Assembly: GCA_963844035.1 (NCBI GenBank)
Contig: CAWJMT010000009.1
Location: forward strand, 1 to 64,000
From: an uncultured Gemmatimonadales bacterium
Lineage (GTDB): Bacteria > Gemmatimonadota > Gemmatimonadetes > Gemmatimonadales > GWC2-71-9
DNA length: 64,000 nucleotides
Direction of reading: 5' to 3'
The position numbers are program-made. The stretch's first letter is position 1. Every line of letters begins with the position of its first letter. Below are positions 24,001-26,735 of this stretch, one piece after another.

Positions 24001-26735
24001 CGGCTCGAACGGCAGCAGGATGTCGGCGAAGAGGATCGCGGCATCAACGCCCAGCCGCGCGATGGGCTGCAGCGTCACCTCAGCGGCAAGCTCGGGGTGG
24101 TGGCACAGCTCGAGGATGGTGTGTTTCTGCCGCAGGGCGCGGTACTCGGACATGTAGCGGCCCGCCTGCCGCATGAACCAGACGGGTGTTACGTCGGTCC
24201 GTTCCCGGCGGCACGCCTGCAGGAAACGGCTGTCAGCCGGCAACCGTCGGCTCGCGTGCCTCGGCGGAAGCGATGAGGATGGTGTCCCCTTCGAGCTTCA
24301 CCCGATAGGTGACGACCGGCAGCGCGGGCGGTCCGTCCAGCACCTGCCCGGACTCGAGCGAGAACACCCCTGCGTGCCAGGGGCACGTGACCGCGCAGCG
24401 CGCGGGGTCGACGGTGCCCTCGCTCAGGGACGCGCGTGCATGCGAGCAGCGGTTGGCGATCGCGTAGACCGTTCCGTTGACGTTGAACAAGGCGACGGCT
24501 TCGCTCGAGGCATACACCCGCTTGGAGGCGCCCGGGGGGAGATCCGCGAGCGTGGCAACGGGCGTGTAGCCGTCGGCGCGCGCCGCGCGCCGCGAGACGG
24601 CCTGCGTCGACCCCGCGCCGCCGAGCGTGTCCAGCATGTCCCACAGCGACATCTGGACGCAGGTGAACGTCGGCGTGTCCTTGGACGTGTACGAGGAGGC
24701 CTTGCTCTCGCGCAGCTCCATGACCAGGTCGAGGAACTCGCCGGGTTTGTCGCCTTCGAAGGCGACGATGAACTCCTGGTCGTCGAGCCCGTAGGAGTAG
24801 GTGGTGTTGAGCCGGATGGTCGGATACTTGCGTCCGATCCGCACGTGTTCGTCCATCATCACCTGTCGCTCCGGCTTGGGGAGCAGGTACCAGGCGCGCG
24901 ACTTGATGAACGGGTAGACGAACAGGTAGCGGGCGTCGCTCGGCTTGATCACGAGACGGGACGCGTGGTTCGGATCGTCGGGGAACTCGTAGATCGACCG
25001 CCGCGTCATCGCGAGGTAGCTGAACGGCACCGAGAGGTACGCCCCGAAATCGGTCCGGTTGAGCGCAGTCTGCAGAGCGACGAGGGAGTCGAGATCTTCC
25101 GCGACCTGCCAGAGGAGGAAGTCGCAGTCCCCGCGGATGCCGACCAACCCGTACGGGCGGAGCAGCAGGTGTCCGTTGAAACCTTCGATCGTCTCGCCGA
25201 ACTCTATTTGCGAGCTCGCCTGCCGCTCGGCGGAGAGACGACGCCAGGCGGGGTCGAGTTTGTAGAAGGCGAAACGGACGACTTGGCGTCGTTCAATAGG
25301 CTGGGTCATGGTCTAGGTTCCAATCTAACCTGGAAAAGCGGCGGTTCAGAGCCCCGCAGGTCCGGAGACAGTGCGCGTCATCATCGACCGAGGAACCGCT
25401 TGAGGTGACGTAAGTAGTACGTAAGCCCAATAGCCGCTGCTGCGAAGGCCACCGTCGCGGCCAGCGTGCCGATATTGCGGGACTGGCGGAAATCCCAACC
25501 GCACCAGACGGCGAATCCCGCACAGAAGAAGATAGCTGTAGTGATGAGCAGGCGATGAAACGGGATCATCCCCGCCTCAGGCCACCATCTTGTCGACCAC
25601 CATCAGGGTCAGCAACGCCGGCAGGTACACGACCGACACCAGGAACACGCGCCACGCCCGTGCGGTGGTGACCGCCCGCGTCATCGCGGCCGCCGCCACG
25701 GTGTAGGCGACACCGAGCACGAGGGCACCGAAGAAGTACCACGCGCCGGTTACGCCGAGGACAGTCGGGAGCAGGCTGACCGGAACCAGGGCGAGGGCAT
25801 ACAGCAGCGCCATCGAGCCGGTTTGCCGTCCGTCCGGGTCCTGGACGGCGAGCATCGCGAAGCCGCCGCGGCGGTAGTCCTCGCGGTAGATCCACGCCAG
25901 GGCAAGGAAGTGCGGCAGCTGCCAGAGGAACAGGATCCAGAACAGCGCGAGCACCGCGGGGCCGAGCGCGCCTCCTGCGGCCGTCCATCCCCCGACGATC
26001 GGGAGCGCTCCCGGGACCGCTCCAATCAGCGTGTTGAGCGACGTGGTGCGCTTGAGGGGCGTGTACAGCAGGACGTAGCTCGCGAGCGTGAGCGCCGCGA
26101 GCCCGGCGGTCAGGAAGTTGACCGCCACCGCGAGGTAGACGACGCCGGCGAACGAGATGACGCCGGCGAACACGCCGGCCGCACGTGGGCTCACCCGCCC
26201 CGACGGCAACGGCCGGCCGCGCGTGCGATGCATGCGCGCGTCCAGGTCCCGCTCGCGGAGCTGGTTGAACGCATTGGTCCCCGCCGCGACGAGCGCGGTG
26301 CCCAACAGTGTATGGACCAACAAGCCCAAGTCCACCGCGCCGCCGGCTCCGAGATAGAAGCCTGCGGCGGCGGTGAGGAGCACCAACTGGGTGATGCGCG
26401 GCTTGGTCAGCTCAAGAAAGGCTACCAAATACTCTCCGACATCCCTGCAAAGAGCAGGATCAGGGCCAGCGGGATCGGGATGATCGCCAGCATCCGCAGG
26501 TTCCATTTCTCGAACTTCAGGTGCATGAAGTACAACCCCACCAGCAGCGCTTTCCAGACCGCCAGGAAGAGGAGGAGCGCAAGCTTCACGTTCGCCGTGA
26601 TCGGCAACTCGAAGGCGAGCCCCAGCTCGGCGGCCGTGAGGACCGCAAGGTAGATCCAGATGAGGATGTAGTTGGGACGCTTGTGCGCAGTCTCCATGTG
26701 GTCCTCAGACGAGGTAGACGATGGTGAACAGGATG

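Follow-up and report, generated by a model that had tools for sequence, protein, structure and literature searches.

In actinobacteria, heme b synthesis ends with coproheme decarboxylase (ChdC, or HemQ), and several of these proteins have been solved (PDB 9mhq, 9mhr and 9miq, and 6xub, 6xuc and 7q4f from Corynebacterium diphtheriae). They come from monoderms and have a heme fold of two ferredoxin-like domains, with a catalytic tyrosine, a proximal histidine, and contacts to the propionates. Passages of a 2023 review name H2O2 as the most probable physiological oxidant of ChdC (PMC10427985), and passages of a 2026 review describe the physiological oxidant or acceptor as still open (PMC13564367). 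The only ChdC fusion named in those parts of the two reviews is HemH-HemQ (CpfC-ChdC) of Cutibacterium acnes, in which a flexible linker joins ChdC to another heme-synthesis module. The partner is the preceding enzyme of the pathway, which suggests substrate channelling. Another late enzyme of the pathway, ferrochelatase, has a [2Fe-2S] cluster in humans (PpfC) and in some actinobacteria (CpfC), and part of the 2023 review treats its role as debated (PMC10427985). Finally, AhbD catalyzes the same overall conversion of coproheme to heme b, also with iron-sulfur clusters (passages of PMC13564367), but its fold is unrelated and its radical SAM chemistry needs no oxygen.

In the window (the whole stretch of 64,000 nucleotides that we analysed, from an uncultured Gemmatimonadales bacterium), a single gene encodes both a ChdC/HemQ domain and a Rieske [2Fe-2S] domain. 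Its parts are as follows.

24233..25309, minus strand: the fused gene, ChdC/HemQ plus linker plus Rieske [2Fe-2S], 358 amino acids (open reading frame, translation, Pfam)
24617..25309, minus strand: ChdC/HemQ domain, residues 1-231 (phmmer, alignment with chlorite dismutases (Cld), column counts, AF2)
24938..24991, minus strand: domain-linking loop, residues 107-124, with His115 (alignments)
24914-24916, minus strand: catalytic Tyr132 (aligned to PDB 9mhq and 7q4f/6xub)
24845-24847, minus strand: proximal His155 (aligned to the same structures)
24569..24616, minus strand: flexible interdomain linker, residues 232-247 (AF2 pLDDT, alignments)
24272..24568, minus strand: Rieske [2Fe-2S] domain, residues 248-346 (Pfam, NCBIfam and PDB matches)
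24446-24448, 24440-24442, 24383-24385 and 24374-24376, minus strand: the Rieske ligands C288, H290, C309 and H312

Compared to actinobacterial ChdC, the fused protein has about 125 extra residues at its C terminus, which are the Rieske domain. Unlike the HemH partner in Cutibacterium acnes, this domain is a redox carrier without a pathway reaction of its own. It also differs from the ferrochelatase cluster, which is ligated by four cysteines in the enzyme's own C-terminal extension, whereas the Rieske domain is tethered and of the His2Cys2 type.

The gene is one ATG-to-stop frame, and the predicted protein matches three Pfam models above their cut-offs: Chlor_dismutase (PF06778; residues 36-219, E = 1.9e-55, 187.9 bits versus a cut-off of 25), Rieske (PF00355; residues 249-335, E = 4.3e-17, 62.2 bits), and Rieske_2 (PF13806; residues 248-346, E = 8.8e-15, 55 bits). 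Both domains are present in all 120 of the best listed database relatives (82-97% identity). Furthermore, two independent metagenome contigs run across the linker with no gap (X2, 904 bp across 24374-25277, and X5, 457 bp across 24272-24728). A preliminary description of this locus had reported a one-frame fusion that was not an assembly artefact, and these results bear out both statements. The ligand boxes that it listed (C288-S-H290 and C309-P-W-H312) are also present, and they are invariant in the 37 fused proteins that were aligned. More broadly, all 59 fused proteins, which come from at least four phyla, keep the CxH...CxxH pattern with its four ligands.

The same description had mentioned two genomes whose match contained one in-frame TGA. 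These are the genes' own terminal stops: the proteins end about 10 residues before the end of the query. We also considered that full-length matches with "stops inside" might be split pairs of hemQ and Rieske genes, and we rejected this, as reading the DNA showed terminal stops only. None of the 10 fused loci that were read at the DNA level has a stop codon in the linker. Conversely, no separate Rieske gene adjoins the unfused hemQ in 20 annotated Gemmatimonadota loci (10 + 10).

A contig from an RNA library matches 24303-24527 with two differences; it may be DNA carry-over. Contigs from sequencing runs share at most 0.15 of the window's words, which is too small a basis for claims about habitat or expression. 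A scan of 24100-25700 for promoters and terminators found none.

The preliminary description listed the full-length fusion in seven other Gemmatimonadales genomes, plus the two with a TGA, but it is far commoner and more widely distributed. Full-length matches occur in 41 of the 401 Gemmatimonadota genomes sampled (including G000), and fused genes are also found in at least three other phyla: Chloroflexota, Planctomycetota (Phycisphaerales), and Hydrogenedentota (Hydrogenedentes). This also sets the fusion apart from the solved actinobacterial enzymes of monoderms. In a tree of the HemQ domain alone, 58 of the 59 fused genes form one clade. A constraint that keeps all 59 together was not rejected (p-AU 0.948; its log likelihood was 46.7 above that of the free tree, which came from a quick search). 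Because 58 of 59 group together and a single origin is not rejected, the fusion has probably been retained since one old event. The literature that we searched, including passages of PMC4835899, held no description of a ChdC/HemQ or chlorite dismutase fused to a Rieske domain. Relative to that literature, the wide, conserved Rieske-fused ChdC is a new variant.

Whether the N-terminal domain is a HemQ or another member of the chlorite dismutase family had been left untested. Its best solved relatives are coproheme decarboxylases: the top phmmer match among PDB sequences is 9mhq (E = 1.6e-28), and ChdC from C. diphtheriae (7q4f/6xub) has E = 1.5e-21. In the alignment, Tyr132 corresponds to Y135 of the C. 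diphtheriae enzyme (Y147 of the Lm enzyme), His155 to H158, and Lys136 and Trp140 to R139 and W143, whose roles in contacting the propionates are described in parts of PMC11761711. Lys136 is a conservative change from R139. All four residues are unchanged in 120 of 120 HemQ-domain rows. In contrast, the distal arginine of chlorite dismutase (R173 in Nitrospira defluvii Cld) is replaced by Leu167, and this column holds leucine or isoleucine in all 59 fused rows. (The column was placed using the Cld variants 4m09 and 3nn3, whose altered position aligns to a leucine of Nitrospira HemQ.) AF2 predicts a confident fold for the domain, with pLDDT mostly 77-96. The catalytic residues, the replaced arginine, and the solved relatives all identify the domain as HemQ/ChdC rather than a chlorite dismutase.

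The neighboring genes point the same way. On the minus strand, the order is coxIII-ctaB-fusion-hemE-hemY, and a radical SAM gene lies farther away.

22135..~23209, minus strand: short HemY/CgoX-type FAD oxidase, ~357 amino acids, in two reading frames in the assembly
23206..24243, minus strand: hemE (uroporphyrinogen decarboxylase), whose longest frame shares 11 nt with the end of the fused gene
25577..26506, minus strand: ctaB/cyoE heme o synthase (UbiA family), upstream of the fusion after a 267-nt gap
26705..29909, minus strand: cytochrome c oxidase subunits III, I and II
35551..36828, minus strand: radical SAM/SPASM protein, AhbD/NirJ2 family, carrying a PCP_red domain at its C terminus (Pfam)

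So the heme operon is as previously reported, except that hemY is in two frames. The switch is near 22937-22941, and a related metagenome contig is one base shorter at 22937. HemY orthologues from L019 and L022 are above the cut-off of TIGR00562. The setting is conserved in related loci: in the window's subclade, hemE is directly downstream of the fusion in 21 of 22 loci and ctaB is upstream in 21 of 22, and in the next clade the order hemD-fusion-hemE(-hemH)-hemY is kept. In the window's own genome, which is 83.7% complete, hemH is elsewhere, HemF was not found, and the fused gene is the sole member of PF06778.

We also considered that the protein might be a different member of the chlorite dismutase/DyP superfamily, such as a Rieske-fed oxygenase that acts on another tetrapyrrole or a small molecule. 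The protein scores 129.7 bits against the HemQ_actino equivalog (NF042928), under the cut-off of 235 bits, and its clade is distant from all characterized ChdCs, with 9mhq as the best match. However, a different function is hard to reconcile with the invariant tyrosine, proximal histidine and propionate contacts, with the missing Cld arginine, or with a genome in which hemE, hemY and hemH are present, HemF was not found, and this is the one PF06778 gene. It also does not fit the tight linkage of the fusion to hemE, hemD, hemH, and hemY in three clades. We consider it highly improbable. Instead, both halves of the protein are very probably what they appear to be, ChdC/HemQ and Rieske, and the gene very probably encodes the genome's only coproheme decarboxylase. 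The enzyme is predicted to complete heme b synthesis by carrying out two oxidative decarboxylations of coproheme.

The fused enzyme does not seem to be tied to one way of making coproheme. In five of the genomes with the fusion, neither a HemY above the cut-off nor a ferrochelatase was found (0 of 5 for each), while AhbA/B-type domains are present in all five. Thus, fused enzymes complete not only the coproporphyrin route but also, in these five genomes, a siroheme-type route. Since the five genomes have no HemY, CgoX would not be a source of H2O2 in them. Outside the Gemmatimonadota, 5 of 19 loci have an AhbD-like radical SAM gene as well as the fusion, and the window has a weaker one: the protein at 35551-36828 scores 302 bits against TIGR04545 and 299 bits against TIGR04055, both below the cut-offs of 500 bits. 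It is a possible oxygen-independent coproheme decarboxylase. Because AhbD-like genes stand alongside the fusion, not in its place, they seem to be a separate, oxygen-free alternative.

What does the Rieske domain do? Among PDB sequences, residues 248-352 are most similar to BphF (2e4p, E = 8.7e-15), followed by CarAc and TodB, and the NCBIfam matches are of the HcaC/AndAb/NirD type (88 bits for PRK09965/HcaC). The Rieske proteins of the bc1 and b6f complexes are much poorer matches (E = 2e-8 to 2e-5). These high-potential proteins carry extra disulfide cysteines, while the boxes of the fused protein, C-S-H-A-R-A and C-P-W-H-A-G, lack the second cysteine. So the domain appears to be a low-potential ferredoxin type, judging its potential from that of its relatives. 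The Rieske ferredoxins of oxygenases (BphF, 2e4p/1fqt; CarAc, 1vck/3gce; TodB, 3dqy; and HcaC) share its size, its fold and its CxH...CxxH ligands, and they pass electrons one by one to an O2-activating metal center. However, they are free-standing, have a dedicated NAD(P)H reductase, and deliver electrons to non-heme iron oxygenases, whereas for the fused domain we propose the substrate heme as the target and found no reductase. Specifically, Reductase_C (PF14759) has no match in the window's genome (83.7% complete), and in three sets of loci (10, 22 and 19) no reductase gene recurs next to the fusion. As for other Rieske-like matches, G000 has one, and it is weak (C36:168071-168283, E = 4e-8). 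We also considered a NuoE/NuoF-like FMN/Fe-S gene that follows the unfused hemQ at L031 and L039 as a redox partner, and rejected it as a chance adjacency. It is missing from L040, and we assign it to an fds-type operon because a molybdopterin formate-dehydrogenase subunit comes next.

The preliminary description proposed that the Rieske center takes up the electrons of the decarboxylations. This is not supported as written, as the data show no direction. If the cluster did pass these electrons to a respiratory or soluble acceptor, then heme synthesis would be independent of peroxide and possibly of oxygen. Indeed, passages of PMC13564367 state that FMN can stand in for H2O2 and that an anaerobic reaction may be possible. 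Also, the cluster's ligands are strictly conserved, and the fusion lies directly behind the cytochrome oxidase and ctaB genes on the same strand. But Compound I and a tyrosyl radical, both required by the accepted mechanism, form from an oxygen donor (parts of PMC11761711), and a one-electron acceptor of the ferredoxin type cannot make them. Furthermore, the Rieske part looks like the low-potential ferredoxins that act as donors and not like high-potential bc1-type centers, no acceptor partner was identified, and the co-occurring AhbD-family genes could cover anoxia. We think that an electron sink is unlikely.

Because the Rieske part resembles the low-potential donors of oxygenases, and because ChdC chemistry needs a donor of an oxygen atom, we rank a donor above an acceptor. 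We tentatively propose, at somewhat less than even odds, that the low-potential-type Rieske domain donates electrons to the coproheme iron and that O2 replaces free H2O2. The cluster would give single electrons to the iron, reducing Fe(III) to Fe(II); O2 would bind; and a second electron would follow. O2 activated on the substrate heme would then yield the ferryl/Tyr132-radical oxidant, and the enzyme would not depend on free H2O2, such as H2O2 from CgoX. The cluster might be reduced by HemY, the FAD enzyme encoded close to the fusion, or by a ferredoxin reductase of general type.

The distal base may bear on the choice of oxidant. In actinobacterial ChdC, a distal histidine (H118 in C. diphtheriae) deprotonates H2O2 (according to parts of PMC11761711). 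His115 of the window's own protein aligns with this residue. However, the fused proteins as a group do not conserve the distal base: a histidine is in this column in 14 of 59 fused rows, and in 41 of 59 the loop has no histidine at all. Three orthologues from the same genus have glutamine instead. In contrast, all 38 of the nearest unfused relatives keep the distal histidine, as H-x-H aligned to the 9mhq residue. That fusion co-occurs with loss of the distal base points to changed catalysis in the fused clade. It does not prove that the oxidant is new, because ChdCs from Firmicutes also lack the base and still use H2O2 (parts of PMC11761711).

The donor proposal can be taken further, with less confidence. 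The fused ChdC might be a self-contained, monooxygenase-like enzyme in which two electrons per decarboxylation activate O2 on the substrate heme without free H2O2; we view this as possible but rather doubtful. The dispensable distal histidine would then be the sequence signature of a switch of oxidant. The Rieske module would have been acquired a single time and later passed between phyla, and it would terminate both the coproporphyrin route and a hybrid route from siroheme to coproheme. In operons of the coproporphyrin route, HemY may feed electrons to it directly, which would couple the oxidation of coproporphyrinogen to the final decarboxylations.

Alternatively, H2O2 might remain the oxidant, and the cluster might re-reduce off-pathway ferryl, tyrosyl or porphyrin radicals, or keep the iron of coproheme or heme ferrous. 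The substrate is a redox-active heme, the enzyme forms protein radicals (parts of PMC11761711), and the domain is of the low-potential donor type, all of which suit such a protective reductant. But it leaves the dispensability of the distal base among the fused proteins without an explanation, and no specific evidence favors it. We judge this role, which would limit self-damage or allow the heme to be handed over in ferrous form, to be very unlikely.

It is also conceivable, though improbable, that the cluster is not catalytic and instead senses the state of iron, Fe-S, oxygen or redox, or stabilizes the oligomer, and thereby gates the output of heme. The [2Fe-2S] cluster of human PpfC and some actinobacterial CpfC, of unknown role according to parts of PMC10427985, would be a precedent, and no reductase partner was found in the window's genome or at the loci examined. 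The linker, too, looks like a flexible tether. It varies in sequence and length among aligned fused proteins (~16-25 residues), and AF2 gives residues 232-242 a pLDDT under 50. The AF2 model (pTM 0.66) predicts no fixed interface and leaves the relative position of the HemQ and Rieske domains unfixed, and hence the distance from cluster to heme. Docking HemQ residues 1-231 to Rieske residues 243-350 with heme and 2Fe-2S gave a score of 0.18 and a mark of 0.32, without controls, values that argue neither for nor against contact. However, a regulatory or structural role seems inconsistent with Rieske ferredoxin domains being electron carriers in all close solved relatives, with the coincidence of fusion and loss of the distal histidine, and with the retention of the fusion across two different upstream pathways.

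The Rieske-fused ChdC is a direct experimental handle on the in vivo oxidant or electron acceptor of coproheme decarboxylase, for which parts of the reviews consider H2O2 probable (PMC10427985) and FMN possible (PMC13564367). The "Gram-positive" final step of heme synthesis is widespread, in modified form, in diderm phyla of soil and sediment, and two different upstream routes to coproheme lead to this one terminal module. Its conserved, built-in iron-sulfur carrier could reveal how the enzyme gains its oxidizing power in living cells.

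The fused gene is set among genes for heme synthesis and the heme-copper oxidase:

22135 to ~23209, minus strand: HemY-type oxidase
23206–24243, minus strand: hemE, whose longest frame overlaps the end of the fused gene by 11 nt
24233–25309, minus strand: the fused gene, a single frame from ATG to stop (358 amino acids)
25577–26506, minus strand: ctaB
26705–29909, minus strand: cytochrome oxidase subunits (cox II/I/III)

All of these are on the minus strand, and the setting given in the preliminary description (oxidase genes and ctaB on one side, hemE and a HemY-type oxidase on the other) is borne out. 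Chlor_dismutase matches residues 36–219 of the protein (E = 1.9e-55), while Rieske and Rieske_2 match residues 249–335 and 248–346; all three Pfam matches are above the cut-off. The Rieske ligand boxes are C288-S-H290 and C309-P-W-H312. As had been argued, the fusion is no assembly artefact: both domains are present in all 120 of the closest database proteins among the matches listed (82–97% identity, 341–432 amino acids), and two independent metagenome contigs span the linker without a gap. No other gene with PF06778 is present in this genome (3.47 Mb, 83.7% complete), and the fused protein is its sole coproheme decarboxylase (ChdC or HemQ). A ferrochelatase is present; we looked for HemF and for AhbA/B-type domains in the same 83.7% complete genome and found neither.

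Some heme-related genes of this genome are split over two frames or ORFs. The HemY/CgoX-type gene (22135–23209, minus strand) is split over two frames, with a switch near 22937–22941 and matches to profile positions 3–92 and 217–465. At three other loci (L055, L058, and L061) the orthologs keep a single frame, and at 22937 a related metagenome contig (X1) has one base fewer. Either an indel in the assembly or a frameshift specific to this strain probably explains the split. The ferrochelatase gene (G000:C4:394341-395241, minus strand, in the same genome) is also in two frames (profile 2–265 and 265–316), and an EB_dh-like heme-binding gene that adjoins the oxidase genes (30688–31714, minus strand) consists of two overlapping ORFs (profile 1–55 and 184–234). 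That so few genes show several frame breaks suggests that the assembly contains indel errors. The HemY-type oxidase that adjoins the fusion in Gemmatimonadota is also short, with 357–364 amino acids instead of about 470 (22135–23209 in the window; L019:2104-3189; L022:2147-3217). The short forms lack roughly profile positions 92–217, and those of L019 and L022 still pass TIGR00562 (142.7 and 124.7 bits, cut-off 97.85). In Thermoflexus, a full-length HemY (476 amino acids) adjoins the fusion.

Three neighboring genes of the window, all on the minus strand (35551–36828, 36829–38844, and 39253–39699), either end in PCP_red (PF08369) or contain it; in protochlorophyllide reductase subunit B, this domain is C-terminal. 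The three genes encode an AhbD/NirJ2-like radical SAM protein, a 671-amino-acid Usp-domain protein, and a 148-amino-acid protein. PCP_red is also N-terminal in an unfused HemQ (cluster representative P0136, 330 amino acids), and it may be a tetrapyrrole-handling accessory domain.

The fusion had been described from several Gemmatimonadales genomes. It is real there, but it is more widespread. With the fused protein as the query, full-length matches were found in 41 of 401 Gemmatimonadota genomes (this one included; another, G182, is flagged as unpublished): 39 in the window's own family and two of two in another family. Nine of these matches were flagged with one stop, which is the gene's own end, about 10 residues short of the end of the query, and the linker is open in all 10 loci that we read. 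The "in-frame TGA" previously reported for two genomes is likewise just the end of the gene. A search of 1.84 billion cluster representatives gave 7583 matches at E ≤ 1e-3; four of the 150 matches listed have both domains at full length (P0124, P0126, P0131, and the 736-amino-acid P0127). A scan with one genome per species gave 80 loci. It placed fused genes at 19 loci in Gemmatimonadota, in Chloroflexota (Anaerolineae, Caldilineaceae, Thermoflexus, Chloroflexia, Ktedonobacteria, and Dehalococcoidia), and in a Phycisphaerales MAG, a Hydrogenedentes MAG, an unclassified bacterium, and a contig labelled Oceanobacillus. Identity to the window's protein across both domains is 46–53%. None of the 80 loci is a fused gene from Armatimonadota. 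The contig labelled Oceanobacillus sp. (L074, DATGQJ010000207.1, GC 0.56) is probably mis-binned; in the tree, the sister of its fused gene comes from a Ktedonobacterales MAG. The closest unfused relatives (51–59% identity on the HemQ part) are from Nitrospirota, Acidobacteriota, Methylomirabilota, Abditibacteriales, and other Chloroflexota.

We built a tree from the HemQ part alone, leaving out the Rieske columns and entering identical domains once (120 rows, of which 59 are fused and 61 unfused). We left out eight loci: L001/L007 (the window's own record, entered as win_P0002), L067/L068 (duplicates of L021/L022), L051/L054 (partial), and L093/L094 (contig end). The unfused row L049 is from the unpublished genome G157, and no result rests on it. 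One clade holds 58 of the 59 fused rows (SH-aLRT 85), and the remaining row, a long-branched triple fusion, is placed near it. Constraining all 59 together gave a log likelihood 46.7 units better than a quick free search (p-AU = 0.948), and a single origin of the fusion is not rejected. The fused genes of Gemmatimonadota form one clade (37 rows, support 98) nested in the cross-phylum fused group, whose first branch is Dehalococcoidia. The Gemmatimonadota clade, L072, and L079 join a clade made up of Anaerolineae, Phycisphaerales, and Hydrogenedentes (99) at a node whose branching order is not resolved. Unfused hemQ of other Gemmatimonadota families fall in separate clades. Gain and loss are indistinguishable because the tree is unrooted; transfer between phyla would be the simplest reading.

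Within Gemmatimonadota, hemQ falls into at least three distinct lineages. One is the fused clade; of the unfused ones, one clade has a long insert in a loop and another is distant, at 30–38% identity. Furthermore, many genomes of the window's own family, within the 401-genome sample, have no HemQ-length match to the fused protein. So the routes of heme synthesis seem to differ within one family.

The closest solved relatives of the N-terminal half are coproheme decarboxylases (9mhq, E = 1.6e-28; Corynebacterium diphtheriae ChdC, E = 1.5e-21). Tyr132 aligns with the catalytic tyrosine (Cd Y135), His155 with the proximal histidine (Cd H158), and Lys136 and Trp140 with the propionate contacts Cd R139 and W143 (roles as described in the accessible parts of PMC11761711). 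All four residues are unchanged across 120 aligned HemQ-domain sequences. The position of the catalytic arginine of chlorite dismutases, which is varied in the N. defluvii Cld variants 4m09 and 3nn3, is Leu167 in the fused protein and leucine or isoleucine in 59 of 59 fused proteins, so this is not a chlorite dismutase. The choice between HemQ and another member of that family, which had been left to a check of catalytic residues or a tree, thus falls on the HemQ side. The HemQ_actino equivalog is missed (129.7 bits, cut-off 235), and we interpret this as a ChdC from a clade without a characterized member; that the protein is no ChdC at all is hardly credible.

In actinobacterial ChdC, the domain-linking loop bears a histidine (Cd H118) that takes a proton from H2O2 and promotes the formation of Compound I (PMC11761711, accessible parts). 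All 38 of the nearest unfused relatives keep H-x-H in this loop, and the first histidine aligns with that of 9mhq. In contrast, the loop (query 107–124) has no histidine at all in 41 of 59 fused proteins, and just 14 of 59 have one at the aligned position. His115 is present in the window's protein; the three orthologs from its genus have glutamine. From these alignments, the putative H2O2-handling residue is dispensable in just those proteins that carry the Rieske domain. As a single evolutionary event lies behind the loss of the histidine with the fusion, this is a correlation of one, and firmicute ChdCs function without such a distal base (PMC11761711, same parts).

The C-terminal half (residues 248–352) matches ferredoxin components of ring-hydroxylating oxygenases: PRK09965/HcaC, AndAb, and NirD in NCBIfam, and BphF (E = 8.7e-15), then CarAc, TodB, and naphthalene dioxygenase ferredoxin in the PDB. 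Matches to bc1/b6f-type Rieske proteins are far weaker (E = 2e-8 to 2e-5). Ferredoxin components of these oxygenases are low-potential electron donors. In an AlphaFold2 model from 37 fused sequences, both halves are folded (mean pLDDT 82, pTM 0.66) and the linker (residues 232–242) has pLDDT below 50, so the Rieske domain looks tethered, with its position left unpredicted. These results show a ChdC to which a conserved Rieske cluster domain is tethered.

We tentatively propose that the coproheme iron receives electrons from the cluster, one at a time. O2 would then be activated on the substrate heme, giving the ferryl/Tyr-radical oxidant, and free H2O2 would not be needed. The donor-type relatives of the Rieske domain and the dispensable distal base favor this proposal. 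However, we found no reductase partner: PF14759 has no match in the 83.7% complete genome, and no reductase gene recurs in the fused-locus contexts that we examined. The model predicts no domain interface, and reviews favor H2O2 as the probable oxidant (PMC10427985, accessible parts). The preliminary description instead viewed the cluster as an electron sink. FMN can stand in for H2O2 (PMC13564367, accessible parts), which would fit a sink, but we consider a sink unlikely. That the cluster has a regulatory or structural role, as in some ferrochelatases, is similarly improbable, and a cluster that serves as a protective reductant is very doubtful. The C. acnes HemH-HemQ protein is the only ChdC fusion named in the accessible parts of two reviews (PMC13564367 and PMC10427985), and the word Rieske does not occur in the 2026 Chem Rev review (PMC13564367). 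Our literature search for HemQ, ChdC, or Cld with Rieske, which covered few subscription papers, found no paper on such a fusion.

The contexts of the fused genes point to two upstream routes. Of 22 loci in the window's subclade, 21 carry ctaB upstream and 21 carry hemE immediately downstream; where either gene is missing, the flanking sequence runs out. Among 10 more distant fused loci from Gemmatimonadota, six have the fusion between hemD and hemE, followed by hemH and/or short hemY, and two have no heme gene within 3.3 kb. (Near unfused hemQ, we judged NuoE/NuoF-like and molybdopterin formate-dehydrogenase-like genes of an fds-type operon, L031:2667-4571 and L039:4770-9499, to be chance adjacency; of the four loci from one Gemmatimonadota family, two have them after hemQ.) Outside Gemmatimonadota, a ferrochelatase directly follows the fusion in 10 of 19 loci. 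One of these is itself a fusion of hemH and hemE: a 677-amino-acid ferrochelatase-uroporphyrinogen decarboxylase, directly 3' of the fused gene in the Hydrogenedentes MAG (L091:5043-7073). Five of the 19 have a radical SAM/SPASM gene that scores 457–462 bits on AhbD (cut-off 500), and six have an aldo/keto reductase gene (~330 amino acids) directly upstream of the fusion (L078, L083, L089, L090, L095, and L100). HemQ and Rieske are also joined to an AhbA/B-like siroheme decarboxylase, comprising two NirDL-HTH/AsnC_trans_reg2 repeats, in three triple fusions (L089:3986-6163, 726 amino acids; L100:3941-6523, 861 amino acids; and P0127, 736 amino acids). Such triple fusions point to a hybrid route in which siroheme is converted to coproheme and ChdC, in place of AhbD, then makes heme b.

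We compared ten fused genomes, whose completeness is unstated and among which kin are not independent. The five with the aldo/keto reductase neighbor have no HemY over the cut-off (0/5), no ferrochelatase (0/5), and AhbA/B-type domains in 5/5; the five without that neighbor have HemY and ferrochelatase in 5/5 each and AhbA/B-type domains in 0/5. That genomes lacking CgoX use the fused enzyme also favors the cluster as an electron donor, as does the fact that AhbD-like genes are present separately for anoxia. Given the clean split, the fused enzyme appears to end both the coproporphyrin route and a siroheme route, and the siroheme route appears to have no CgoX to supply H2O2.
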